The notes under the pieces are model-generated. The model saw nothing but the letters and a program-made list of their open reading frames with translations, did not search any database and was not told where the DNA came from. The position numbers were made by a program, and so were the translations under genes. From an uncultured Acidobacteriota bacterium (GTDB taxonomy: Bacteria; Actinomycetota; Acidimicrobiia; Spongiisociales; ZC4RG35): a stretch of 64,000 nucleotides of DNA. The stretch covers positions 609,813 through 673,812 of the forward strand of contig CAWACX010000002.1 of NCBI GenBank assembly GCA_963780755.1, given 5' to 3'. This document shows, piece by piece, positions 3,336 to 57,162 of this stretch (positions are counted from its first letter, which is position 1; each line of letters opens with the position of its first letter).

Positions 3336-3790
3336 GTCGGATCCTGGTGCGTGGCCTCCTGGTGGCCGCGGCCGCCGCGCTGCTCCTGGCGCAGCTGCAA
3401 GGAGCTTCTCTGCTCTGGGCCTGGGAGGCACTACTCGTCCTCCTGGTCATCTGGCAGGTGCGCGAGATGCCCGGAGCCGACACGACGCCGGGAATTTCGT
3501 TGCTTCCGGCGCGCGATGCGAGGCCTACCCGGCTGCCGAGGTCGGTGGTGGCCGCCGAGGTGGCCACCAGTGATGCACTCTCGGGCCACACGGGGAGGGG
3601 TCGTCGGCTCCGGCCGATGCTGCAGAGGATCGCAAGCCACCGCCTGGCGCGCCGCGGAATCGCGCTCGACAGCCCCCAGGCTCTCGGCTTTCTGGATGAT
3701 CGGACCTGGAGATGGCTTACCGGGCGCGAGGACCGCCCGCCACCGCCCGCAGAGATGAGCGCGCTGTTGACGGCACTGGAGGAGATGTGA
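3332..3790 (+). CDS. hypothetical small membrane protein in MoxR operon
   Basis: 152 aa ORF, N-terminal hydrophobic helices; start overlaps upstream stop; its stop overlaps the moxR GTG start (ATGTGA at 3785-3790). Confidence 0.4.
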   Translation: MSRILVRGLLVAAAAALLLAQLQGASLLWAWEALLVLLVIWQVREMPGADTTPGISLLPARDARPTRLPRSVVAAEVATSDALSGHTGRGRRLRPMLQRIASHRLARRGIALDSPQALGFLDDRTWRWLTGREDRPPPPAEMSALLTALEEM

Positions 3791-4771
3791 CTGCTCCCGC
3801 GGTCGAGGCGGAGCGCTTCGCAGTCCTCGCCGACGCGGTCCTCGACCAGGTGGAGAGGGCAGTCATCGGCAAACGGCAGACATTGGAACTGGTGCTCATG
3901 GCGATCCTCGCCAACGGGCACGTCCTGATCGAGGACCTTCCGGGCCTGGCCAAGACCCTCGTCGCTCGCAGCTTCGCCGCGGCAACCGACCTCGAATTCG
4001 CTCGGGTCCAGTTCACACCGGACCTGATGCCGATGGACATCACGGGCTCCTTCGTCCTCGACCCGGACACCGGGCGTCCCGGGTTCCGGCCCGGGCCGGT
4101 GTTCTCCAACCTGCTCCTGGCCGACGAGATCAACCGGGCACCGGCCAAGACCCAGGCGGCATTGCTGGAGGCCATGCAGGAGCATCAGGTGACGGTCGAC
4201 GGCGTCACCCGACCCCTCGGTCCCCCGTTCCTGGTCATTGCGACCCAGAACCCGATCGAATACGAAGGCACCTACCCCCTTCCCGAGGCCCAGATCGATC
4301 GGTTCCTGATCCGGGCCCGCATCGGATATCCCGATCGCGGGCCGGAATGGGAGATGCTCGACCGTCGAGCGCGGTCGCGGGTCCGATGACGTCGACATCG
4401 ATGTCGTGGTCGATCGCTCGACCCTTCTCCAGATGCAGGGAGTCGTCGAAGAAGTGCACCTCTCCGAGCCGGTCGGCCGCTACATCGTCGACCTGGTCTC
4501 GGCTACCCGGACGTCGGGCCGGGTGCGTGTCGGATCGAGCCCGCGCGGCTCATTGGCGCTGATGAAGCTGGCACGGGCCCGGGCGGCTCTGTCCGGGCGA
4601 AGCTTCGTCCTGCCGGACGACGTCCAGGAGGTCGCGATCCCGGCCTTGGCCCACCGCTTGATCCTCCGGCCAGAGTTCTGGGCCCAGGAGTTGAGCGAGG
4701 AGAAAGTCATCCAGGACGTCCTGGAGCAGGTGCCCAGCCCTCCGGCTGCGCCCGACGCCTTCCAACCATGA
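3787..4771 (+). CDS. MoxR-family AAA+ ATPase, reading frame interrupted by a single +1/-1 shift near 4370-4390
   Basis: Frame-1 part (GTG 3787..4389) has Walker A/B-like LIEDLPGLAKT, LLADEINRAPAKTQAALLEAMQE, VIATQNPIEYEGTYPLPEAQIDRF; the AAA lid continues in frame 2 (4406..4771: VVDRSTLLQMQ...AHRLIL); shift at the cgcggg/tcc run. Confidence 0.85.
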
Positions 4772-12691: not shown

Positions 12692-13684
12692 ATGCCGGTG
12701 ACAGTCCAGAAATACGGTGGGACCTCGGTGGCCGACCCCTCCCGGATCCACGCCGTGGCAGATCGAGTCACCGCGACCCGGGGATCTGGTGAGGACGTGG
12801 TCGTGGTGGTGAGTGCCATGGGGCAGACCACCGACGAACTGCTCGCCCTGGCGGCCGCGATCAACCCCAACCCGCCGCCCCGTGAGATGGACATGCTCCT
12901 CACCGCTGGGGAGCGAATCACCATGGCGCTGCTTGCCATGGCCCTCGACGCCCGGGGAGTTTCCGCCGTCAGCTACACGGGGTCACAGGCGGGGATCCTC
13001 ACCGACTCCTCACATGGCGAGGCCAGGATCCGCGAGGTCACCGGCCACCGGGTGCGGGAATCGCTGGCCGAGGGAAAGGTGGTCATCGTGGCCGGCTTCC
13101 AGGGCGTCGACCCCGAGCGTCGTGAGATCACGACACTGGGCCGGGGCGGGTCGGACACCACCGCCGTCGCCCTCGCCGCTGCCCTCGACGCCGAGGTATG
13201 CGAGATCCTCACTGATGTCGACGGGGTGTACACCGCAGATCCTCGGGTGGTCCCCGAAGCGCGCAAGATCGATTCCATCGGGTATCACGAGATGATGGAG
13301 ATGGCATCGTCTGGAGCAGGTGTCCTCATGCCCCATTCCGTGGAATTTGCCCATCGATTCGGGGTTCCCGTTCATGTGCGATCTTCCTTTTCCGCTGCTC
13401 CGGGCACCTGGGTCGTGAGCGATGCCCCGGCATCGATCGTGATTGGGTTGGCACACCGCCGCGCCGGCGACAAGGCCATGATCTCGATCATCGGGAGCGG
13501 GGCGAGCACGGTCAGCGACCGGAGCGTCGAAGCCCTCGCCGATCATGGGATCGCCGTTCTCGACCAGAGCAGCACCGGCCTCAGCGTCACCATCGAAGTG
13601 CCTGGCGAGCGTTTGGAAGACGCCACCAGGCTGCTGCATGTGACCCTCGACCCGCCGCTGGTCAACGAGGAGGTCCCGGCATGA
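12692..13684 (+). CDS. ask: aspartate kinase (short form, ~330 aa)
   Basis: [19 protein letters not shown]...[13 protein letters not shown]...[18 protein letters not shown]; C-terminal regulatory region appears to hold a single ACT-like module; ask-asd pair. Confidence 0.85.
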
Positions 13685-20776: not shown

Positions 20777-21115
20777 GAAACGGAAAGAGGGCCCTCGCGG
20801 GCCCTCTTACCGAGGCCTCCCTCTCCCCAACCCCAACAGTCCACTTGGCACGTTCCTTGTAGATCATCAACCACGGAGAGTGGTCAATAAAGGACCCTTC
20901 CCCACAAGCCCAACGGGACTAGTCCGTGGCGTGAACGAAGTGGGGTCTGAGATCGGCCAACAAACAATGGTGGAAACCGACATCGGTCGATGGTGGGTGG
21001 CACAATGCGGCACCCACTCCGAGGAGGATCGTTGACCACGTCAGAGCCCCCGGCGACCCCGCCACCCGCCGAGCCACCGCCACCCGCCACCCCCACCCCC
21101 ACCCCCACCTCCACC

Positions 21116-21202
21116 TCCATCGGAACCACCTCCTTCCGAGCCACCACCTCCATCGGAGCCATCTCCTTCCGAGCCACCACCTCCATCGGAACCGTCACCT
21201 CC
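21116..21202 (+). repeat. 33-bp in-frame tandem repeat (2.6 copies) encoding a PSEPPP-type proline-rich linker
   Basis: tccatcggaaccacctccttccgagccaccacc / tccatcggagccatctccttccgagccaccacc / tccatcggaaccgtcacctcc. Confidence 0.8.
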
Positions 21203-21275
21203 GGCTGTCCCGCCGCCTGCGCCTGCGTCACCGGCCGTCCCTCCGCCTGCGGCACCGGCAGTCCCCCCATCAGGT

Positions 21276-21689
21276 ATGCCATCCAACCTGGCCGACTGGG
21301 GAATCCGCGCCATTGGGGCGATCATCGACTGGTCGCCGGTGATCATCATCAGCATCGTCACCTATCGGGTTCCCTTCTTCGGGCTGCTCTCGGCGGCGTA
21401 TCTGGCCTATCTCGGGCACCTCGAGGGCACCACCGGTCAGACCCCGGGGAAGGCGATGCAAGGGACCAGACTGGTCAACGAGCAGGGCGAGCTGTTGGGG
21501 AGCGGTGCCGGCATCGGGCGCAAGTTCGTCCACATCCTTGACTCGCTCGTCTGCTTCCTCGGTTGGCTGCTTCCACTTGTCGACAACAAGCGACAGACCA
21601 TCGCCGACAAGGTGATGAACACCTATGTGGTCACCGGCGTGGAAAAGAAGGGCTTCGCCGTCGACCTCTGGATGCCACCGAAGACGTAA
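21276..21689 (+). CDS. RDD-family membrane protein (N-terminal Pro-rich extension probably longer, see findings)
   Basis: 137 aa from ATG 21276 with an RDD pattern; the same frame is open upstream to 21036 with no start codon. Confidence 0.7.
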   Translation: MPSNLADWGIRAIGAIIDWSPVIIISIVTYRVPFFGLLSAAYLAYLGHLEGTTGQTPGKAMQGTRLVNEQGELLGSGAGIGRKFVHILDSLVCFLGWLLPLVDNKRQTIADKVMNTYVVTGVEKKGFAVDLWMPPKT

Positions 21690-32759: not shown

Positions 32760-32798
32760 CGGATCGGTAACCAGGCCGTGGTATTCATCCCAACCGAA

Positions 32799-34850
32799 AT
32801 GGAGCATTTCGACCCGGATCATTTCCTCAACCGCGAGCTCTCCTGGTTGGAGTTCAACAAGCGGGTGCTGACCCTGGTGCAACGGCCTGATTTCCCGTTG
32901 CTGGAACGTGCCAAGTTCCTTGCCATCTGGGCGGCCAACCAGGACGAGTTCTTCCAGGTCAGGGTGGCAGGCCTCAAAGAGCAGGTGGCGCACGGAGTGG
33001 GGGTCACCCCCGACGATGGGATGACGCCGAGCCAGCAATTGGCGGCCATCCGACACGACGTCGACCTCCAGTACGAGGCAGTTTCCAAGCAATTCCTGTC
33101 CGAGGTGGCCCCCGCCCTGGCCACGGAAGGAATCGTGTTCAGCGACTACCCAACACTCGATGCCGAAGACCGGGAGTTCCTCGACCGGCAGTTTCGGGAC
33201 CTGGTGTTCCCGGTGGTGACACCACTCGCAGTCGACCCCTCCCATCCCTTCCCGTACATCTCGAACCTGTCACTGAACATGGCGGTGTTCGTGAGGAATC
33301 CCGACACCGGTCTGGCCCGGTTTGCCCGGGTCAAGGTGCCGCCGATCCTGCCCCGCTTCGTGGTGCTCCCCGACGGCGAGAGGTTCGTGCCGCTGGAGCA
33401 GGTGATCGCAGCCCACTTGCCCGCTCTCTTCCCCGGCATGGAAGTCCTGGCCAACCACGTGTTCCGCGTCACCCGAAACGCCGACATCGACGTCGAAGAG
33501 GACGAGGGTGGGGACCTGTTGATGGCCATCGAGTCCGAGCTCACCCAACGTCGCTTCGGGAGGATTGTGCGTCTCGAGATACACCCCGACATGCCCGACG
33601 AGGTGCTCGACCTGCTGCTCCGGGAGATGGGCGCCACCGAGGATGACGTGTTCCGGGTGGAAGGGCCCCTCGACCTTGCCGGGCTGTGGGGGCTGTACGA
33701 CCTGGATCGCCCGGAGTTGAAGTTCGACACTTTCACCGGGGTGACGCCGGCGCGTCTTGCCGTATCTGCAGGCGAGCAGGTGGACCTGTTCGAAGTCATC
33801 CGCCAAGGCGACCTCCTCGCCCATCACCCGTACGACTCGTTCACCCCCACAGTCGAGGCGTTCATCGACCGCGCCGCCCGTGATCCCAGGGTGCTTGCGA
33901 TCAAGATGACTCTTTACCGCACCTCGAGCGACAGCCCGATCATGGCCTCATTGATCCAGGCCGCCGAGTCGGGCAAGCAAGTCGTCGCGCTGGTCGAGTT
34001 GAAGGCCCGATTCGACGAGGAGCGCAACATCGAGTGGGCGCAGCGCCTGGAGGACGCAGGCGTCCATGTCACCTATGGCGTGGTCGGGCTCAAGACGCAC
34101 ACCAAGCTCACGCTTGTGGTGCGCCGAGAGGGTGAGGGGGTTGCCCGTTACGCCCACGTCGGGACCGGCAACTACAACGAGAAGACCGCTCGGACCTATG
34201 AGGACGTCGCGATGTTCACCGGCGATCCCGACATCGGGTCGGATCTGTCCGACATCTTCAACTACCTCACCGGTTACTCCCGTCAGACCAACTACCGAAA
34301 GCTGGTCGTCTCACCCAACGGCATCCGCAGCCGGATCACCGAGTTGATCGAAGACGAGGCTTCACGGACCGACGGGCACATCGTCATGAAGATGAACTCC
34401 CTGGTCGACGCCCGGATCATCGAGTCGCTATACGCGGCTTCCCGGGCCGGGACCCGGGTGGATCTCATAATTCGCGGAATCTGCTGCCTTCGCCCTGGTG
34501 TCCCTGAGCTCTCCGAGAACATCACGGTGCGCTCGATCGTGGGCCGCTATCTCGAGCACTCACGGATCTATCGCTTCGGAGCGAGGGGACGGTCCCGCCA
34601 TTACTACATCGGCTCCGCGGACCTGATGCCCCGGAACCTCGACCGCAGGGTCGAGGCCCTGGCGCCGATCCTCGATCCCGACTTGCAATTCAGGGTCGAC
34701 GAAGTCCTCGACGTGCTTCTTGCCGACGATCACCTGGCCTTCGAGCTCGCCGGTGACGGGACCTGGACCAGAGTCCCATCGGTGAAGGGCGTCGACGCCC
34801 ATATCGCCCTCCAGGAACTGGCCCGGACCCGGTCCACCGCTCACCTTTGA
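32799..34850 (+). CDS. ppk: polyphosphate kinase 1
   Basis: MEHFDPDHFLNRELSWLEFNKRVL...; autophosphorylated-His region and two PLD-like HKxxxxD modules; alternative GTG at 32778. Confidence 0.9.
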   Translation: MEHFDPDHFLNRELSWLEFNKRVLTLVQRPDFPLLERAKFLAIWAANQDEFFQVRVAGLKEQVAHGVGVTPDDGMTPSQQLAAIRHDVDLQYEAVSKQFLSEVAPALATEGIVFSDYPTLDAEDREFLDRQFRDLVFPVVTPLAVDPSHPFPYISNLSLNMAVFVRNPDTGLARFARVKVPPILPRFVVLPDGERFVPLEQVIAAHLPALFPGMEVLANHVFRVTRNADIDVEEDEGGDLLMAIESELTQRRFGRIVRLEIHPDMPDEVLDLLLREMGATEDDVFRVEGPLDLAGLWGLYDLDRPELKFDTFTGVTPARLAVSAGEQVDLFEVIRQGDLLAHHPYDSFTPTVEAFIDRAARDPRVLAIKMTLYRTSSDSPIMASLIQAAESGKQVVALVELKARFDEERNIEWAQRLEDAGVHVTYGVVGLKTHTKLTLVVRREGEGVARYAHVGTGNYNEKTARTYEDVAMFTGDPDIGSDLSDIFNYLTGYSRQTNYRKLVVSPNGIRSRITELIEDEASRTDGHIVMKMNSLVDARIIESLYAASRAGTRVDLIIRGICCLRPGVPELSENITVRSIVGRYLEHSRIYRFGARGRSRHYYIGSADLMPRNLDRRVEALAPILDPDLQFRVDEVLDVLLADDHLAFELAGDGTWTRVPSVKGVDAHIALQELARTRSTAHL

Positions 34851-34874
34851 CGGCCGATTCGGGGCGTCCTCAAC

Positions 34875-34918
34875 GTTCATCTCTCGTTCACACGGCGGTC
34901 GGATCTCGTTCAAGGCCC
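34875..34918 (+). promoter_or_regulatory. PHO box: three GTTCA direct-repeat units phased at 11 bp (PhoP/RegX3-type operator) upstream of pstS
   Basis: GTTCAtctctc GTTCAcacggc (ggtcggatctc) GTTCAaggcc, unit starts 34875, 34886, 34908 (spacings 11 and 22 bp); 80-120 bp upstream of the pstS ATG 35001. Confidence 0.6.
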
Positions 34919-35000
34919 ACTCTTAGCTTGCCGCGTGACCGTGGGGGCGAGACCTTCATGGTTTGTTGAAAACCGTTTCCCTATCAAGGAGATAGAAGGG

Positions 35001-36084
35001 ATGAAGGTCCGAATTGCCCGCCTCATCGGCTGTGTTTGCGGTGCTGGCGCTGGTCCTCGCCGCGTGCGGCGACGGGGCGCGGAGGAACGACCACGACCGC
35101 CGGCTCCGAAGAGCCAACGACCACGACTGCACCGACGAGCCGGCCACACTGCCGAGGGGGCGGCGGCGGGACCTGTCAGGGAACATCGTCGTTTCCGGAT
35201 CGTCCACTGTGGAGCCGATCGTGGCCCGGGTCGGCGGAGGCTTTCGACGGCGCCAACCCGGGTGTCGCCACCTCTGTCGAAGGGCCCGGCACCGGAGACG
35301 GCTTCGCCCGGTTCTGCGCCGGGGAGACCGACATCTCCAACGCCTCACGGCCGATTTCCGATGAAGAGATCGCCCTTGTGCGAGGAAGGCGGCAGTCGAA
35401 TACGTCGAGCTTCACGTCGCGACCGATGGGATCACGGTGATCACCAACCCGGCGAACGAAGCGGTGAGCTGCCTTGCCTTCACCGACCTCTACGCCCTCG
35501 TCGGTCCCGAGTCGGAAGGGTTCGCCAATTGGTCGGACGCCAATGCGCTGGCCGCCGAGTTGGGAGCCCCCAACGCTCCCTACGCCGACGATCCGCTGGT
35601 GATCACCGCTCCTGGTGAGGAGTCGGGCACCTATGACACCTTCGTCGAATTCGTGATCGCCGACATCTCCGAGGAGCGACTCGGTGAGGACAACGACTTC
35701 ACCCGTGCCGACTACAACGCAGCGGCCAACGACACGGTCATCGTCGACGGCATCACCGGTGATCCCACATCGCTGGGTTGGGTTGGCTTCGCCTTCTACG
35801 AGGAAAATGCCGATGCCCTCAAGGCGATCGAGTTGGACGATGGTGAGTCAGGGTGCGTCGCGCCCACGGCCGAGACCATCGCCAGCTTCGAGTACCCGCT
35901 CTCCCGGCCGCTGTTCATCTACGTGAAGACCACCGACCTGGCGAATCGGGCCGACCTGACGGCATTCGTCGACTACTTCCTCTCCGATGAGGGGTTGGCT
36001 GCGGTGACCGAAGCCGGATACGTCCAATTGCCGGCAGAGGACATCGAGGCCACCCGGGCCGCCTGGACGGGCGCCAAGGGCTAG
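35001..36084 (+). pseudogene. pstS: phosphate ABC transporter substrate-binding protein PstS, reading frame broken about 5 times
   Basis: PstS-like segments alternate between frames 3, 1, 2, 3, 1 (MKVRIARL / SAVFAVLALVLAACGDG / ...GSEEPTTTTAPTS / GNIVVSGSSTVEPI / AEAFDGANPGVATSVEGPGTGDGFARFCAGETDISNASRPISDEEIAL / VEYVELH... / MITNPANEAV...). Confidence 0.75.
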
Positions 36085-36097
36085 ACCGACTGAACGA

Positions 36098-36136
36098 TTG
36101 GGGGGCCGGACCGGCTCCGGCCCCCCAATCTCTATA
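36098..36136 (+). terminator. strong intrinsic terminator/attenuator between pstS and pstC
   Basis: ttggggggccgg-accggct-ccggccccccaa (12-bp stem) followed by tctctatatt. Confidence 0.6.
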
Positions 36137-36149
36137 TTCAGGACGAGTC

Positions 36150-37090
36150 ATGGCCTCGCTCAAACAGTAAGCAGCCTGCGATCGAACTCACAGGTGATCG
36201 GCGCCGTCGCCGGCGTGAGCGGGTGGTCGAAGTCGCTGTTCTTCGCGCGCCGCTGCGGTCGTCGATTCTGATCTCGGTGCGCCATCGTGCTGGCACTGGT
36301 CGGGCAAGGCCTGGTCGTTTTTGACCTCGATCGAAGCTCAATCAACTTTGGTCGAGTGGTTGGTTCCCACGACGGGGGCGATTCCAGCTCTCGGCGTTGC
36401 TGGTCCACACCCTGATAGTGACCGGGATCGCAATGATGGTTGCGGTCCCCTTCGGGCTGGGCTCGGCGATCTACCTCTCCGAGTACGCCAGGTCGAGTGT
36501 GCGCCGGGTCCTGAAGCCCACCCTCGAGATCCTCGCCGGGATCCCCTCGGTGGTCCTCGGCTTCTTCGCTCTCCAGTTCCTAACCCCGAACGTGGTCAAA
36601 GGCTTGTTTCCCGGGCGCTGAGACCGCCAACTTCCTCGCCGCCGGGATCGCGGTCGGGATTCTGACCGTTCCACTGATCGCATCGGTGTCCGAGGACGCG
36701 ATGCGTGCCGTCCCCTTGGCGCTGAGGGAGGCTTCGTATGGCCTGGGGGCCAAGCAGTGGCACACCGCCCTTCGGGTGGTATTCCCGGCCGCGATCTCCG
36801 GCATCATCGCCGCCATCATCCTCGGCATGTCGAGGGCGGTCGGCGAGACCATGGTCGTCGCCCTCGCCGCCGGTCTCAACGGGATAATGAACTTCAACCC
36901 GACCGGGGGCGGGCTGACCATGACCGGAGCGATGGCGAACCTGGCCGTGGGGTCCGATCAGGTGGCTGGTGACGCGGCCGCTTTCCAGTCACTCTTCTTC
37001 GTCGGCCTGGTGCTCTTCGCCTTGACCCTCGGCCTGAATGTCATTAGTCGAGCGCATGGTCCGCCGGTATCGGCAGAGGTACTGAGATGA
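36150..37090 (+). pseudogene. pstC: phosphate ABC permease PstC, fragmented by frameshifts
   Basis: PstC fragments at 36397..36621 (IYLSEYA...) and 36686..37090 (EAA-loop region RAVGETMVVALAAG) lie in different frames; the N-terminal ~80 codons from ATG 36150 are disrupted. Confidence 0.7.
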
Positions 37091-38053
37091 CGGCGACACG
37101 CAGAGACATTGTCGACTCCCGAGCTGGTTCGCAGATCGATCGAGGGGCGTCGGTTCAGCCCGGTCGAATGCCCTGGTCGACCTTCATGCTCTGTTGGCGC
37201 TGCTGTCCTCCGTGGTCATCCTCATCACTCTCCTCGCTGACACCATCGCGGCCGCAATGCCTGTGTTCCAAGCGCGGGGCCTTACCTTCGTCACCGACTC
37301 CCTGTCACCGGACGCCGGAGTCGGCGGGGATCTGGCAGGGGATCATGGGGTCGCTGGCGCTGACTGCCTTCGTGATCGTCATCTCCTTCCCTCTGGGTGT
37401 GGCGGCCGCCGTCTATCTGGAGGAATACGCGTCGGAGAACCGGGTGACCAAGTTCATCAATGCCAACATCCGCAACCTGGCCGGGGTGCCTTCGATCGTT
37501 TACGGGATCCTCGGTCTGTTTCTTTTCGTCGAGATATGATGAGCGGGGTCTTCGGTGCCGAGGAGGGGATCGGGGGCCGGAATGTCATCGCTGGTGGACT
37601 GACGCTGGCAGTCCTCGTCCTCCCGATCATGATCATCACCACCTCGGAGGCGCTGCGGGCGGTCCCCGGCGGCCTGCGCGAGGCCTCCCTTGCGGTGGGG
37701 GCAACTCGATGGGAGACGATCCGGCATCACGTCCTCCCGGTCGCCTTCCCTGCGATCCTCACCGGGTCGGTGCTCACCATCGCCCGGGCGTTCGGGGAAT
37801 CGGCGCCTTTGCTGCTCGCCGGCGCCCAACTCTCCTTGTTCTTCAGCGTCTCCAGCGAAGCGTCCTTCGTCGACTTGGTCTCCAACCAGCCCTACACGGC
37901 GCTGCCGATCGTCATTTCAACTTCGCACGACAACCGCAGGAGGCATTCGTAGCGCTCACCGCGGCCTCGATCGTCGTGCTCTTGGTCATGTTGCTCACGG
38001 TCAATGCCGTGGCGGTGATCATGCGTGACCGGTTCGAGCGGAGATATCGATGA
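37087..38053 (+). pseudogene. pstA: phosphate ABC permease PstA, at least 4 frame changes
   Basis: PstA-like segments alternate between ORFs 37087..37539, 37194..37952 and 37460..38053 (C-terminal ...AVIMRDRFERRYR). Confidence 0.7.
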
Positions 38054-38988
38054 ACCACCAGGAAGGCGAAGACTTGACCATTGACACCACCACCACCGGA
38101 ACCACCGACACCGCTCCCGACTCGGTCGGGGCAAGTGTCTCGGCGCTCGAGGAACAGGCAGCGCGGGTCGCGGAGGCTTCGGAGGCGGCGACCGGGACCG
38201 ATCCGCATCAGCCGATGATTTTCGACGTGGACGACCTAACTGTTTTCTACGGGTCGTTTCGGGCGGTCAAGAACGTGAGCATGGAGATTCGTCAAAATCA
38301 AATCACCGCCTTGATCGGCCCCTCGGGATGCGGCAAGTCGACCGTGCTCCGTTGCTTCAACCGAATGAACGACCTGATCGAGACCGCCCGGGTCGAAGGG
38401 ACGGTGCACTACCACGGCGTCGACCTCTACGGGGAAAAGGTGGACCCGGTGGAGGTGCGGAGGCGCATCGGGATGGTGTTCCAAAAGCCGAACCCGTTCC
38501 CGAAGAGCATCTACGAGAACATCGTGTACGGGCCGAAGATCGCCGGTTGGAAGGGGAACTACGACGAGCTGGTGGAGGAGGCCTTGATCAAGGCCGCTCT
38601 CTGGGACGAGGTCAAGGACAAGCTCAAGGAATCGGGCATGGCCTTGTCCGGGTGGCCAGCAACAGCGACTTTGCATCGCCCGGGCCATCGCCACCAGCCC
38701 CGACGTGGTTCTGATGGACGAGCCGTGTTCCGCCCTCGACCCGATCGCAACCTTGAAGATCGAGGAGCTGATGCTCGAGTTGAAGAAGGACTACACCATC
38801 GTCATCGTCACCCACAACATGCAGCAAGCCGCTCGGGTGTCGGATCAGACCGCCTTCTTCTCGGTGAACGTCGAGCGATGAAGGGACAGCGCACCGGTTA
38901 CCTCGTCGAGTACAACCCCACCGAGCAGATCTTCACTTCGCCAACCGAGAAACAGACCGAGGACTACATCACAGGACGGTTCGGATGA
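38050..38988 (+). pseudogene. pstB: phosphate ABC ATPase PstB, 2 or more frame disruptions plus in-frame stop
   Basis: Walker A GPSGCGKST in frame 1; the signature [16 protein letters not shown] is readable only in another frame (a T inserted in gggTggcc); the C-terminus returns to frame 1 after a TGA. Confidence 0.75.
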
Positions 38989-39692
38989 CCGACGTCACAG
39001 ACACCAATCTCCATTTTCACCAGGAACTCGAAGCGTTGGAGCACACCGTGCTGGGCATGATCGATCGCGCCGAGCAGATGGTGGAGATGGCGGTCGAAGG
39101 GGTGTGCACGAGCAACCTCGAGCTGGCAGACCGGGTAATCAGCCTCGATGACGGGATGGATGAGACCTACTTGTCGGTCCACAACCATTGGACAACCCTG
39201 ATGGCCCGGTTCCAGCCATTGGGCTCCGACCTGCGAAAGATGACAGTGCTCCTCCAGCTCAACCAGACTTTCGAGCGCATGGGCGATCAATGCGTGAATA
39301 TCGCCAAGATCTCGAAGCTGAACGTCGGGCTGCCCCCCGTGGAGCGGATCGTGGGGCAGATCCAGGAGATGGGAGACCTGGTTCGGCCCATGATCCGATC
39401 GTCGATCGAGGCCTACTTGCGCCAGGACCTGGACGAGGCCCGCCTCCTCCCGGCCATGGATCAACCGGTGGATCGGCTCAACGCCAACATGTACAAGGAG
39501 ATCGTTGCCGTCGGGGACAAACCGCAAATGCTGGAATGGGCCTCCAAGATGCTGATGGTGGCCCGCGCCCTGGAGCGGATCGGTGACCAGGCTGTCGACT
39601 TCGCCGAACAGACGGCGTATCTGATAACAGGAGAGCGAGCCGAGTTCGTGAAGGCGGGTCTCAACAGGTCGGCCGATGACGACACAGGCTGA
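38985..39692 (+). CDS. phoU: phosphate signalling complex protein PhoU
   Basis: 235 aa, two PhoU repeats (ERMGDQCVNIA / ERIGDQAVDFA); intact. Confidence 0.9.
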   Translation: MTDVTDTNLHFHQELEALEHTVLGMIDRAEQMVEMAVEGVCTSNLELADRVISLDDGMDETYLSVHNHWTTLMARFQPLGSDLRKMTVLLQLNQTFERMGDQCVNIAKISKLNVGLPPVERIVGQIQEMGDLVRPMIRSSIEAYLRQDLDEARLLPAMDQPVDRLNANMYKEIVAVGDKPQMLEWASKMLMVARALERIGDQAVDFAEQTAYLITGERAEFVKAGLNRSADDDTG

Positions 39693-40388
39693 CCGAAGGT
39701 CGCATCGCATCCTCCTCGTCGAGGATGAGCCCGGACTTGCCGAGTCGGTCCGTTATGCCCTGGGAAGCGAGGGATTCGATGTGCTCGTCGCCGACACCGG
39801 GGTCAGCGGCTTGGAGTCGGCTCGCACCAATCAGCCCGACCTCATCCTGCTCGACCTGATGCTCCCCGGGATGTCGGGTCTCGACGTCTGCCGCCAGATC
39901 CGGTCGTCGTCGGACGTCCCGATCATCATGCTCACCGCCAAGGACGCCGAATCGGACAAGGTCGCCGGGCTCGAACTGGGGGCCGACGACTACATGACGA
40001 AGCCGTTCTCGATGCGCGAGCTTGTCGCCCGGGTCAGGGCGCAGTTGCGCCGCGCTGCCAAGAGTGGGCTGCTCTCGGACTCCAACGAGGTCCTGCGGGG
40101 GGAGCCATCGACCTCGACATCGACGCCCACCAGGCCCGTTTCAACGGGGAGGACGTCGAACTCCGCCCCAAGGAGTTCGAGCTCCTCGAGTCCCTGATGC
40201 GGAGGAAGAACCGGCTGGCCGCCCGACACACCTTGATCGATGAGGTGTGGGGACCGAGCTACTTCGGGGACACCAAGACACTCGACGTCCACATCAAGCG
40301 CCTCCGTCAGAAACTGGAGCCCGACCCCGCCAAACCGGTCCACATCGTCACGGTGCGCGGTCTCGGCTACAAATTCGTGGATGAGTGA
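39676..40388 (+). CDS. regX3: OmpR/PhoB-family response regulator (RegX3/PhoP-like), single frameshift in a G6 run at 40097-40102
   Basis: Receiver in frame 1 (ILLVEDEPG...DLILLDLMLPG...MLTAK); winged-helix output in frame 3 (GGAIDLDIDAHQARFNGEDVELRPKEFELL...VRGLGYKFV); one G more or two fewer restores it. Confidence 0.85.
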
Positions 40389-42111
40389 CCGGACCGACTC
40401 CGGCCGGACCTCATTGCCGCTTCGCTCGCTGGCCTACTTTGTCGTCGCCTACCTGCTCCTGATCGGGCCCGCGGCGTGGCTGATCGCCGACGGGGTCACC
40501 GAACAAGCCACAGAGCAGGCGCTATCCGCACTGGAGACCGATGCTCGCCTCGCTTCCGAGTCGCTCCCAAGCGACGATCTCGATGCGTGGGTGGAGCAGA
40601 TGTTCCTGATCACCGGGCTCCGTTATGCGGTGATATCCACCGAGGGCGAAGTGCTCGCCGACTCCCACAGTGATGTCGCCGAGACCGAGAGCCATGCCGA
40701 CCGTCCCGAGGTGGTCGCGGCCAATGCCGGAGAAGTTGGAACCGATTCCCGGCCGAGCGAGACCACAGGCTTCGATCAGCACTACCTGGCCCTGCCTCCC
40801 GAGGACGGGTTGATAGTGAGGGTCTCGATCTCAGACCAGGACCTGTTGGAAGACGTGACCTTCGCCCGCAACGCGGTTTGGTGGATTGCGGGCCTGGCCG
40901 GCCTGGTCGGGGTCCTCGTGGTGTGGGTGCTCAGCTCGCGTCTTTCTGGGTCGATCACGAAGCTGACCGACCAGACACTGTCCGTCGCCGCCGGCGGGGA
41001 ATCGCCGCCCTCCCGCTCCTCGGTGCTCGAGTTGGACCGGCTGGGAGCCGCTGTCGTCCAACTCGAGGGCAGTCAGAAGGTCAGGGTCAACGAGGCGCAG
41101 GCAGCGAGCGAGACACTGGAGAAGGTGCTTGGCGCCCTACCCCAGGGGACCATCCTGTTCTCGGAGGCAGATGAGGTCATCTACGCCAACCCTTCGGCAT
41201 ACGAGCTCCTCGGCGCGGTCCCCGGCTCGCTCGCGGCGCTTGTCCCGTTCCCGTTTCAGGATGCGGTCCACGAGTGCAAGGAAGCCCGGCAGCCGGTGGA
41301 GCGCGTCGCCGAGCACGGGAAGCCGTCCCGAAGGTTGCGAGCAGTAGCCACCCCGTTCACAGGCGATGAGCGGATCCTGTTGGTGGTCGTCGATGTCACC
41401 GATCGGGAGCGGGTCGCATCGGTCCGCCGTGATTTCGTGGCCAACGCCTCGCACGAGCTCAAGACCCCGGTGTCGGCGATCATCGCTTCCTCGGAGGCTC
41501 TCCAGATCGCGATCGGCCGGGGCGACGAGTCGGCGGCCGGGTTCGCTCTTCAGATCGAAAGCTCGGCCCGCCAGTTGGACCGCCTGGTTGGGGACCTTCT
41601 CGACCTTTCCCGATTGGAGCGCGACGAGCCCGAGTTGGACCCGCTCAGCCTCGACCTCCTGGTGCGTGAGGAGTTGGAGCGAATTCGACCGGGAGCGGAG
41701 GAGAAGGGCATCGCCCTCGACTTCGACCTCGATCCGGTGCAGGTCTCCGGGAGCCGGCGCGACGTGGCGATCGCAGTCCGCAACCTGCTCGACAATGCCG
41801 TTCGCTACACCGGGTCTGCCGGCACGGTGAGCGCCAGCCTGCACCGGTCGAACGGGCAAGCCGTGCTCCAGATCGCCGACACCGGCGAAGGCATTCCAAC
41901 CCGGGACCTGAGCCGTGTGTTCGAGCGCTTCTATCGGGTGGACAACGCCAGGTCCCGTGCCACCGGTGGGACCGGGCTTGGGCTCTCCATCGTCAAACAC
42001 GTCGTCGAGAGCCACGGTGGCGCGGTCGACGTGGAGAGCGAGCTGGGGGAAGGGTCGGTATTCACAGTGCGACTGCCCGTTCTCGAAGGGGAAGCCCTGG
42101 TCGCTGGCTAG
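40381..42111 (+). CDS. senX3: sensor histidine kinase (SenX3/PhoR-like)
   Basis: N-terminal TM and sensor region, PAS-like region, HisKA box ASHELKTPVSAIIAS, HATPase_c (DNAVRYT...GTGLGLSIVKHVV); ATG overlaps the regX3 stop. Confidence 0.88.
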   Translation: MSDRTDSGRTSLPLRSLAYFVVAYLLLIGPAAWLIADGVTEQATEQALSALETDARLASESLPSDDLDAWVEQMFLITGLRYAVISTEGEVLADSHSDVAETESHADRPEVVAANAGEVGTDSRPSETTGFDQHYLALPPEDGLIVRVSISDQDLLEDVTFARNAVWWIAGLAGLVGVLVVWVLSSRLSGSITKLTDQTLSVAAGGESPPSRSSVLELDRLGAAVVQLEGSQKVRVNEAQAASETLEKVLGALPQGTILFSEADEVIYANPSAYELLGAVPGSLAALVPFPFQDAVHECKEARQPVERVAEHGKPSRRLRAVATPFTGDERILLVVVDVTDRERVASVRRDFVANASHELKTPVSAIIASSEALQIAIGRGDESAAGFALQIESSARQLDRLVGDLLDLSRLERDEPELDPLSLDLLVREELERIRPGAEEKGIALDFDLDPVQVSGSRRDVAIAVRNLLDNAVRYTGSAGTVSASLHRSNGQAVLQIADTGEGIPTRDLSRVFERFYRVDNARSRATGGTGLGLSIVKHVVESHGGAVDVESELGEGSVFTVRLPVLEGEALVAG

Positions 42112-54714: not shown

Positions 54715-55730
54715 ATGAAGCAGCTCCTCGACGACCTGCTTGCAGGCACCGATCTCTCGACGGAAGGTGCAGACGAGCTTCTCGTGGCCTTGACCAAGGG
54801 TGATGTCGAGCCGGCGATGGCGGGGGCCGTACTCACCGCACTGCGGGCGAAGGGAGAGACGTCCGACGAGGTGCGTGGGTTTGCTCAGGCCATGCGCCGC
54901 CTCTCCTCCGATCCGGGGATCGACGCTTCCGGCGCCGTGGACGTGGTGGGGACAGGGGGGATCGCTCCGGCTCGCTCAATCTCTCCACCGGCGCTGCGCT
55001 CTTGGTAGCTGCGGCCGGGGTCCCGGTGGTCAAGCACGGCAACCGGTCGATGACGAGCCAGAGCGGGAGCGCCGACGTCCTGGAGGCGCTGGGCCTGCCC
55101 ATCCCGCTCGACGCCGAGCAGGCGCAGCGCTGCTTCGCGGCGCTCGGCTTCAGCTATCTGTTCGCCCCGCACTACCACCCGGCGATGGCGGCGGTGGGGC
55201 CGATTCGGCGTGCCCTCGGGGTCCGCACCGTCTTCAACATGCTGGGCCCACTGACCAATCCGGCAGGGCCCCGTCACCTCGTGATCGGGGCTTTCGACGC
55301 TCGAGCGGCCGAATTGATGGCCGGCGCCCTTGCCGGACTCGACATCGATCGGGCCTTCGTGGTCCATGGTGCGGCTGGATGGGACGAGCCGAGCCCGATC
55401 GGTGAGTTCCTCCTTTTCGATGTCCGTGGCGGAAAGGTCGAGCGGTCGACCCGTGATCCCGCCAACCTGGGCCTGACCCGATGCGATCCGTCCGACCTCG
55501 CCGGCGGCGACCCGGCGCACAACGCGGCACAGCTCAAAGCGGTGTTCGGCGGCGAGCCGGGTCCGCACCGCGACGCGGTCCTGCTCGGCGCCGCACTGGC
55601 CCTGGAAGTCACCGGCCACGCCCCGGATCCCGAGGCGGCGCTCGCTGGTGCCGGCGCCGCGTTGGATGACGGGCGGGCGTTGGCCCTCCTTGATGGCCTG
55701 ACCGAGTTCGGGGAGGGAGAGCGGGCGTGA
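54715..55730 (+). CDS. trpD: anthranilate phosphoribosyltransferase, frameshift in G run 54955-54960
   Basis: N-terminal part 54715..55008 (VVGTGG) and the remainder 55002..55730 (VAAAGVPVVKHGNRS...) in adjacent frames; one added G gives GTGGDRSGSLNLSTGAALLVAAAG. Confidence 0.88.
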
Positions 55731-56540
55731 GCAGGTTCCTGGAGGAGATGGAGCGGGGCTCGAGGCGACGGTTCGAGCAGTCCCGTGCCCGACGACCCCT
55801 CCCAGCGGTGCGTCAGGACGCGCTGTCAGCCTCTCGGGCCAGGGAGCTGGGCGGCTTCGGCGAACAGTTCGATGTGATCGCCGAGATCAAGCCTCGCTCG
55901 CCGGCCGAAGGTGACCTGGGGAGCGACGGCCTCATGGAGCGAATCGGGGATTACGAACGAGGCGGTGCGGCCATGATCTCCGTGCTCACCGAGCCCGACG
56001 CCTTCTCCGGGTCCTTGGAGCTGCTCACTGCGGCCGCGTCGCAGGCCACGGTCCCGGTCATGCGCAAGGACTTCCTCGTCGACCCGTATCAGGTGTATGA
56101 GGCCCGGGGCTCGGGAGCCGACGGTGTCCTCCTCATCCTCCGCCTCCTCGACGACACCGCCCTGGAAATCGATGTTGGATGCGGTGCACGAGACCGGGAT
56201 GTTCGCCCTGCTCGAGGCCTTCGATCGCCAAGACCTGTCGCGGGCGGTCGCTGCACTCGGCAGGGGGCCGTATTTGTTCACCGGGGTCAACTCCCGTGAT
56301 CTGGAGACCCTGGAGGTCGACCCGGCTGCTCATGTCGGTCTTTCGGAGTTGCTCCCCACGGGCCGGCCGACCGTTGCTGAGAGCGGCATCGCCGGGCCGG
56401 AAGACGTAGGGAGAGTGGCGGCGCTCGGATACCGGGCCGCGTTGATTGGCTCCGCCTTGATGAGATCCGAGGAGCCGGGGAGAGAAGTCACCAGGATGCT
56501 CGAGGCCGGGCGGGCCGCGGTCGGGGCGGCAGCCAGATGA
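55727..56540 (+). CDS. trpC: indole-3-glycerol-phosphate synthase, frameshift at an A run ~56166
   Basis: 55727..56299 and 56097..56540 overlap in adjacent frames; removing one A from ctggaAAtcg gives ...DTALESMLDAVHETGMFALLEAFD. Confidence 0.85.
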
Positions 56541-57162
56541 CGCTCTTCGTAAAGCTCTGTGGCCTTTCCACCGCTGTGGACGTCGAGGTGGCGGTCGACG
56601 CCGGCGCCGACGCCATCGGGCTGGTGATGACCGACTCCCCTCGCCAAGTGAGCCTGGAGCGCGCCGCCGAACTCCGAGCGAGGCTCCCAAAGGGGGTCCT
56701 CGCCGTTGCCGTGTTCCACGCGCCCACCCCGGAATTGGTGCGCAAGGTCGAAGAGGTGGTCTCACCCGACCTGTTTCAGGCGACTCCCGACGCGTTGGCC
56801 GGCATCGACGGGACCAGGGCGCTGCCGGTCGTGGTCGACGGGCCGGGGGTGGGGAACGCGCCCTGGCCGCCCTCGAGGAGACCGGGGCGGCCCGCTTTCT
56901 CCTCGACAGCGCGCCGAAGGGCGGCACCGGGCGCCCTGCCGATTGGGGCCGTTTGGCCGGGCTCACTGCCCTCGACCGCATGGTCCTCGCCGGAGGCCTC
57001 AATCCGGGCAATGTCGCCCAGGTCTTGTCGGTCCTGCGCCCGGCCGGCGTGGACGTCAGCTCAGGCGTGGAGAGTGAGCCAGGGGTCAAGGACCATGCCC
57101 TGATGCGCGCCTTTGTCCACGCCGCTCGATCGATCGACGTTCAGGGAGAGGTGATGGTGTGA
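56537..57162 (+). CDS. trpF: phosphoribosylanthranilate isomerase, frameshift in G run ~56851-56855
   Basis: 56537..~56860 ([11 protein letters not shown]...) plus 56953..57162 frame (…[33 protein letters not shown]...) readable after one added G in gtggggaacgc. Confidence 0.8.

Follow-up and report, generated by a model that had tools for sequence, protein, structure and literature searches.

Clustered small indels across the pstSCAB operon of a soil Acidimicrobiia metagenome-assembled genome point to probable consensus error rather than gene decay

The 64,000-nucleotide stretch of contig CAWACX010000002.1 that we analysed (the window) carries a phosphate-acquisition locus in the gene order ppk, PHO-box-like repeats, pstS, terminator, pstC, pstA, pstB, phoU, response regulator and kinase, which is also that of its Acidimicrobiia relatives. 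The features of the locus are as follows.

32778 to 34850, forward strand: ppk (polyphosphate kinase), intact; bounds the indel-rich tract upstream
34875 to 34918, forward strand: PHO-box-like array of four 11-nt direct-repeat units (GTTCATCTCTC, GTTCACACGGC, GGTCGGATCTC and GTTCAAGGCCC), upstream of pstS
34934, forward strand: extra C in the pstS leader, at a point where all relatives have GCCG-GTGACC in otherwise conserved sequence
35001 to 36084, forward strand: pstS, six frame changes (35031, ca. 35080-35092, ca. 35168, 35236, 35378 and 35395)
36096 to 36130, forward strand: intrinsic-terminator-like hairpin after pstS, 15 pairs including 11 G-C, then TCTATATTC
36151 to 37085, forward strand: pstC, ca. 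nine indels (deletions at 36155 and 36169; insertions at 36250 (2 nt), 36261, 36280, 36301, 36334, 36613 and 37050)
37087 to 38053, forward strand: pstA, five indels (insertions at 37097, 37166 and 37314; deletions at 37535 and 37915)
38050 to 38988, forward strand: pstB, two indels (+1 at 38650, in the LSGGQ codons, and +2 at 38880)
38985 to 39692, forward strand: phoU, intact; bounds the tract downstream
39676 to 40388, forward strand: OmpR-type response regulator (RegX3/PhoP-like), 1-nt deletion near 40096
40381 to 42111, forward strand: sensor histidine kinase (SenX3-like), intact, with HisKA and HATPase_c domains

This layout is that of the actinobacterial pstSCAB-phoU locus, which lies beside a SenX3/RegX3- or PhoR/PhoP-type two-component system and ppk and carries 11-nt PHO boxes; once the frames are repaired, the window shows no substantive difference from it. 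The elements flanking and regulating the operon are well preserved. Ppk is encoded by a single 690-amino acid open frame without a frame change, contains all four PP_kinase Pfam domains and is 93-99% identical to the proteins of relatives, while PhoU (235 amino acids, no frame change, two PF01895 matches) is 91-95% identical. The GTTCA cores of the PHO-box-like repeats are invariant across the window and four relatives (L001, L002, L003 and L081), and the exact pattern GTTCAN6GTTCA occurs only once in the window, where a match with at most one mismatch is expected by chance. By analogy with actinobacterial PHO boxes, we take the repeats to be a putative site for a PhoP/RegX3-type regulator. 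Each arm of the hairpin after pstS is one G or C longer than in the relatives, with complementarity kept, and the promoter repeats, ribosome-binding site and terminator of the operon are all conserved. Thus, the first-pass annotation of this DNA was right to call the PHO box, the pstS-pstC terminator, phoU, senX3 and ppk intact. Its broader description of the surrounding Pho genes as intact holds for ppk, phoU and the sensor kinase, but not for the response regulator, which is 95% identical to its relatives on either side of its shift.

The four transporter genes are heavily frame-disrupted, as had been reported. Frameshift-aware alignment of relatives' proteins to the window DNA, together with a 4-way DNA alignment, located ca. 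22 frame-disrupting indels in pstS, pstC, pstA and pstB (35001-38988), or ca. 1 per 180 nt, and the operon as given therefore lacks uninterrupted reading frames. Insertions (17) outnumber deletions (5), almost every event is 1-2 nt long, and DNA alignment with relatives revealed no deletion longer than 5 nt in pstSCAB. The earlier count of at least five shifts in the first 450 nt of pstS agrees with the six found within 35031-35395; all lie in the first 395 nt of the gene, and the last 215 codons form a single clean ORF. For pstA, where at least four shifts had been noted, we found five. In pstB, the two insertions jointly restore the frame, so that an ORF of 312 amino acids remains open, although its middle part is scrambled. 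An extra base does interrupt the LSGGQ codons, but it is not the T first proposed; it is most simply read as a G (GGT GGC to GGG T GGC), given the GGT GGC present in every relative. Nor does an in-frame TGA lie near the end of pstB: the TGA at 38879-38881 belongs to the shifted frame and coincides exactly with the second indel, the 2-nt insertion by which frame 0 is regained, and it is no nonsense mutation in its own right. Most of the inserted bases lie outside long homopolymers, and no k-mer or methylation-like motif was enriched near the indels among 3- to 5-mers after correction for multiple testing. All 14 single-base insertions can be placed between codons; this is uninformative, because 82% of random insertions can be placed there too.

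Frameshifts are far rarer in the remaining 60 kb of the window, with five confirmed and one possible (1 per 10-12 kb). This count was taken from a codon-usage segment map and Pfam split-domain checks; a GC3/GC2 frame plot was dropped for the purpose, being blind to strand and unable to resolve closely spaced shifts. At the background rate, 0.2-0.7 events would be expected within the tract (P for at least 20, < 1e-22), and its indel density is 50-80 times that of its own contig. The rates given previously, ca. 1 per 300 bp inside the tract and ca. 1 per 5-7 kb elsewhere, were thus too low and too high, respectively, whereas the conclusion that background cannot explain the tract was sound. The tract spans ca. 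34.93-38.88 kb (ca. 4 kb), with its first event at 34934 or 35031 and its last at 38880, and on both sides its ends match those of the operon to ca. 100-300 nt. By a rough, uncomputed estimate, a randomly placed tract would match the operon in roughly a few per cent of cases, and the coincidence gives a hint that the localization has a biological basis. The extra C at 34934 suggests that the tract may begin in the intergenic region, ahead of the coding sequence. Outside the tract, split Pfam domains reveal single frameshifts in a MoxR ATPase gene (ca. 4375), trpD (ca. 54950), trpC (ca. 56165) and trpF (ca. 56870); beside these, trpE, trpG, trpB and trpA are intact. As biology, three broken tryptophan-synthesis genes in a row, with intact ones around them, are not credible.

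When the frames are repaired, each gene encodes a recognizable transporter component. Repaired PstS matches PF12849 (1e-34) and is 85-88% identical to the intact PstS of relatives; its TIGR02136 score (200.6 bits) is just below the cut-off of 206.6, since the repair of the N-terminal linker is ambiguous, and we counted it as a PstS (PBP_like_2 / TIGR02136). The permeases exceed their cut-offs, with 221 bits for PstC (TIGR02138, cut-off 196.45) and 239.8 bits for PstA (TIGR00974, cut-off 193.45), as does the ATPase PstB (TIGR00972, 396.5 bits, cut-off 343.2), which carries Walker A, LSGGQ, Walker B and the H-loop. In a search of the window for a second pst locus, the only matches, at 45.8-46.6 kb and 49.6-50.2 kb, were remote ABC paralogues.

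The repaired genes are under normal purifying selection. Against four relatives their dN/dS is 0.06-0.13, compared with 0.05-0.16 for relative-versus-relative pairs; pairwise dS in these comparisons is 0.6-1.0, and therefore only a test on invariant sites is sensitive to recent change. We examined 637 columns at which 22-51 relatives show no variation. The window departs from them at four, of which three lie where the sequence is briefly out of frame, between the 36250 and 36261 indels, leaving one true deviation; PstA shows none at its 191 invariant columns. Had the 22 indels accumulated neutrally with at least three substitutions per indel, at least 24 deviations would be expected (P for four or fewer, < 1e-6). 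The pst genes also contain no nonsense mutation independent of the indels.

Comparison with relatives, which the first-pass annotation had proposed, shows pstSCAB to be intact in all that are syntenic; intact orthologues are present in L001, L002, L003, L081 and more than 20 others. When the same 8 genes were compared across assemblies classed by contig naming ('MFD ... contig_' names as long-read, short-read assembler names as short-read), frame changes were present in 9 of 15 long-read loci versus 0 of 64 short-read loci (Fisher test, 2e-8). The number of tblastn HSPs served solely as a presence/absence flag for these control loci, because BLAST runs through short shifted stretches and HSP counting badly undercounts frameshifts. 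Thirteen of the 15 events examined in the other long-read loci are +1 insertions, and there too several events cluster, e.g., four in the pstS of L011 and two within 80 nt in L016. PstS searches among 5.8 billion proteins, made with the full-length repaired protein and then with its N-terminal 172 amino acids, found no intact same-strain PstS; the best match is 88% identical, and the sole hit at 100% is the 215-amino acid fragment from the window itself. An exact look-up of the PhoU protein returned one 912-bp Logan contig (ERR11571139), which starts only 30 nt upstream of phoU.

From contig size, repositories and relatives, we infer that the source contig is of Nanopore origin. The MFD long-read MAG pipeline is Nanopore-only, with Flye and one Medaka round (PMC12313526), and Nanopore consensus free of frameshift errors needs ca. 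40x coverage (PMC9262707). The 1.03-Mb contig would then have been produced by Flye with one Medaka round, without short-read polishing, and, being unpolished or lightly polished, would have kept small indels uncorrected in the tract. The local trigger may have been a fall in usable coverage; alternatively, strains that co-occur and differ in their pst alleles may have contributed conflicting reads. The ca. 22 indels are thus very probably uncorrected consensus errors in a ca. 4-kb tract, arising from low local coverage or collapsed strain variation. The genes look healthy in all other respects, which makes a poor local long-read consensus likelier than gene decay. What would be expected of an error tract is also what is seen: small indels only, in otherwise normal coding sequence; frameshifts elsewhere on the contig that hit indispensable genes (trpD, trpC, trpF, MoxR and the response regulator); and the same lesions in long-read, but not short-read, assemblies. 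The evidence thus favours the first-pass annotation's alternative of a locally low-quality or collapsed assembly region, and, as judged from the repaired genes, the pstSCAB-phoU operon is most likely intact and functional in the organism itself.

Residual indels of Nanopore-only (Flye plus Medaka) assemblies, which the IDEEL truncated-protein test detects (Sereika et al. 2022, PMC9262707; MFD catalogue, PMC12313526), resemble those in the window in that single bases break conserved genes, in their occurrence in the long-read but not the short-read MAGs of the clade and in their scatter over housekeeping genes of the same contig. The window differs in its density, 50-80 times background over ca. 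4 kb matching one operon, and in that its events are mostly insertions outside long homopolymers, whereas the literature stresses homopolymer indels (PMC9262707). Consensus errors in long-read MAGs can thus cluster strongly, here, over 4 kb, to 50-80 times the average of the contig, and badly damaged loci can therefore hide behind genome-wide quality scores. Taken at face value, the locus would read as if a soil Acidimicrobiia MAG had lost high-affinity phosphate uptake, a false lifestyle signal for metabolic reconstructions and for pangenome or pseudogene surveys. An error tract can be told from true decay reference-free, by repairing the frames and then examining invariant sites and the indel spectrum.

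A more specific form of the consensus-error explanation, and one compatible with it, has a biological trigger: reads from co-occurring strains with near-identical flanks and divergent pst alleles would have piled up on one contig, and the consensus would either have kept both SNP alleles in series (a spurious +1) or have dropped both (a spurious -1). This mechanism is possible, and we propose it tentatively. It would account for the match between tract and operon. Thirteen of the 14 single-base insertions allow two one-base repairs that both give residues known in relatives, and each pair of repairs diverges at a single site, in most cases the third position of a codon or a position polymorphic among relatives (e.g., Q/E at 37050, D/N at 37166 and A/P at 37314). 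Random insertions allow such dual repair 58% of the time (p=0.005); the statistic is post hoc and the effect modest, and we keep it solely as a lead. Many of the insertions read equally well as +1 extensions of 2-3-nt runs. The start of the Logan contig looks as if the assembly graph branches there. Ppk is 99.0% identical to that of L081, but PstS, PstA and PstB are only 87-91% identical, and DNA identity falls from 93% to 82.5% at 34853/34872; on this sequence comparison, the ppk/pstS junction is a recombination breakpoint in the clade. Against strain collapse, no second haplotype was seen, and the pst sequence of the window is no visible mosaic of any known relative. A hybrid or mosaic of known relatives was considered for the window and rejected, there being no block of near-identity to any of them.

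The pst operon might instead be a genuine, very recent pseudogene array, in a lineage that lost high-affinity phosphate import and kept ppk, phoU and the Pho two-component system. We consider this improbable. As in the pseudogene decay of host-restricted bacterial lineages, frames are disrupted relative to intact orthologues, each of the four genes carries several lesions, damage is limited to one functional unit from pstS to pstB and the neighbours on both sides are intact; the lack of an intact same-strain copy among the searched proteins also fits. However, 22 indels have accumulated with essentially no substitutional decay, and neither relaxed selection nor an excess of nonsynonymous change at conserved sites is seen. 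Repaired genes without decay do not uphold a pseudogene reading. Nor is the indel spectrum that of natural decay, with an excess of insertions (17:5, or 3:1) and no large deletions in place of a deletion-biased mixture of sizes; a deletion bias is well established for bacterial pseudogenes and was reportedly described by Mira, Ochman and Moran in 2001. The conserved regulatory signals, the trpD, trpC and trpF frameshifts on the same contig and the look-alike lesions in long-read but never short-read MAGs likewise weigh against the array, which would demand a local mutational process yielding insertions alone. The suggestion of a recent pseudogene array as a lifestyle signal thus finds no support. 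Were the indels nonetheless real and fixed, for which we see only a slim chance, a soil Acidimicrobiia lineage would have just inactivated its only high-affinity phosphate importer by an insertion-biased, operon-restricted process without substitutions. A milder version would make the pst operon a hypervariable recombining cassette, several haplotypes of which coexist in one population, with the assembly errors as its footprint.

Readthrough of the shifts, by programmed recoding or by some translational peculiarity of the lineage, finds its sole support in the conserved repaired protein sequence and can be dismissed: the 22 shifts are of both signs and have no common sequence context, some shifted stretches are just 11-20 nt long, and no shift recurs in any of more than 25 relatives with intact genes. 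The sister genomes all keep pstSCAB whole and in synteny, without a single one of the interrupted frames, which excludes recoding or a lineage-wide feature. Two of the syntenic relatives, L001 and L081, have an additional YibE/F-family gene between ppk and pstS.

Relatives of this locus were collected via its intact PhoU; all are uncultured Acidimicrobiia MAGs, and the closest share 80-83% DNA identity with the window (65% G+C) over 20 kb, with conserved synteny. Fragments of the window itself occur in NCBI and ENA records of a 1,034,395-bp contig. The gene order ppk, pstS, pstC, pstA, pstB, phoU, response regulator, histidine kinase is common to the window and these relatives. A frameshift-aware dynamic-programming alignment of the window DNA with proteins of the relatives, together with a four-way DNA alignment, revealed approximately 22 frame-disrupting events in pstSCAB.

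Frame-disrupting events in the four pst genes
35001-36084, pstS: 6 events, all within the first 395 nt
36151-37085, pstC: about 9 events
37087-38053, pstA: 5 events
38050-38988, pstB: 2 events

Insertions outnumber deletions seventeen to five; each event spans 1-2 nt, apart from one ambiguous rearrangement within the low-complexity linker of PstS. The first-pass annotation had described the surrounding Pho genes as intact, which is true of ppk, phoU and the SenX3-like sensor histidine kinase, none of which has a frame change. It did not mention the response regulator (39676-40388, between phoU and the kinase), where a 1-nt deletion lies near 40096; the protein is 95% identical to its relatives on either side of the shift.

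The background frameshift rate was established in two ways. Between 27.5 and 34.9 kb and between 39.0 and 49.6 kb, relatives' proteins were aligned to the window, and all but the response regulator matched in single full-length frames. The remainder of the window was examined with a codon-usage segment map, and candidate junctions were then tested with Pfam, which placed the two parts of four proteins in different frames.

Frameshifts located by codon usage and Pfam
3700-4768, MoxR-type AAA ATPase: +1 near 4375, AAA_3 and AAA_lid_2 in successive frames
about 54950, trpD: -1, two TrpD domains
about 56165, trpC: +1, two IGPS/TrpC halves
about 56870, trpF: -1, two PRAI/TrpF halves

A further frameshift is possible near 21250 in an RDD-family membrane protein (20951-21689), where a single frame matches no more than profile positions 48-137 and the stretch immediately upstream gives a coding-like signal in a different frame; Pfam gave no confirmation of this shift. 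The window outside the indel-rich tract thus has 5-6 events in 60 kb, which predicts 0.2-0.7 events in the tract, versus at least 20 observed (P<1e-22). This confirms the broken pst frames and places them even further above background than the first-pass annotation had stated. The trp genes form a second, milder cluster (54715-57162), with trpD, trpC and trpF each split once within 1.9 kb; the flanking trpE, trpG, trpB and trpA are open.

Two explanations had been proposed for the broken operon, a pseudogene array or a low-quality or collapsed assembly region. Three independent lines of evidence argue against real pseudogenes, and on these we consider it very probable that the pstSCAB indels stem from low-quality or collapsed assembly. 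First, the proteins look normal after correction of the indels. Repaired PstC, PstA and PstB score above NCBIfam equivalog cut-offs, all ABC motifs are found, and dN/dS against four relatives is 0.06-0.13, matching intact relative pairs. At 637 alignment columns that are invariant in 22-51 relatives, the window deviates at only four; three of these fall inside an 11-nt out-of-frame stretch bounded by further indels at 36250 and 36261, leaving one true change, PstS D113N. A neutral model with 22 indels and three substitutions each predicts approximately 24 replacements at those columns (P(<=4) < 1e-6). Second, bacterial pseudogenes are deletion-biased, whereas this spectrum is insertion-biased (17:5) and lacks larger deletions.

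Third, lesion type tracks sequencing technology. Among 81 related loci, 15 have records named in long-read style ('MFD ... contig_N') and 64 have short-read assembler names; 9 of the 15 show frame changes within this set of eight genes, versus 0 of the 64 (Fisher 2e-8). Thirteen of the 15 events examined in the long-read loci are +1 insertions, several of them clustered, and the three consecutive broken tryptophan genes amid intact neighbors point the same way. The MFD long-read MAGs were produced by Nanopore-only Flye assembly with one Medaka round (PMC12313526), and the same group found that approximately 40x coverage is required for a Nanopore consensus free of frameshift-causing indels (PMC9262707). 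We infer that the source contig of the window is Nanopore-derived. Across long-read MAG loci of the clade, +1-dominated frameshifts hit ppk, pstS, pstC, pstB, phoU, the response regulator and dxs: pst/pho genes are affected in the loci designated L011, L014, L016, L017, L026, L029, L038, L079 and L081, and dxs in L001 (about 13134-13565). L001 and L081 also have frameshifts in genes unbroken in the window, and very long ENA contigs hold many truncated PstS fragments.

Real, very recent inactivation of pstSCAB is very improbable. What speaks most strongly for a biological component is that the tract ends coincide with the operon ends to within 100-300 nt on both sides. The case is useful as an annotation warning, not as biology.

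No intact same-strain PstS was found in the protein collection. As for a local cause, no enriched sequence motif was found at the indels, G+C is unremarkable, and the tract does not read as a mosaic of known relatives. A coherent candidate is collapsed strain variation. Consistent with this, the ppk-pstS junction (34853-34872) is a recombination or indel breakpoint in the clade: Ppk is 99% identical between the window and L081 and the Pst proteins merely 87-91%, with DNA identity falling from 93% upstream to 82.5% downstream of 34853/34872. Moreover, 13 of 14 single-base insertions admit two distinct one-base repairs, each compatible with relatives, as if both SNP alleles had been kept (null rate 0.58, p=0.005), although this test was devised after data inspection and provides a lead only. 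Between ppk and pstS, L081 (8671-9873) and L001 (4720-5905) have an extra minus-strand YibE/F-family gene that the window and a further relative, L003, lack. A 912-bp Logan contig (ERR11571139; window about 38955-39870) independently encodes an identical PhoU and starts 30 nt upstream of phoU, near the right-hand end of the tract.

Regulatory elements of the operon
34875-34918, four 11-nt GTTCA-type direct repeats: present, conserved across relatives
AAGGAG ribosome-binding site: present, conserved across relatives
36096-36130, pstS terminator hairpin: present

An extra C at 34934, inside an otherwise invariant leader segment, suggests that the error tract begins upstream of the coding region. 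The terminator arms (36098-36128) have six G and six C in the window versus five or fewer in relatives; these length differences, which may be real changes or paired homopolymer errors, compensate one another and preserve complementarity.
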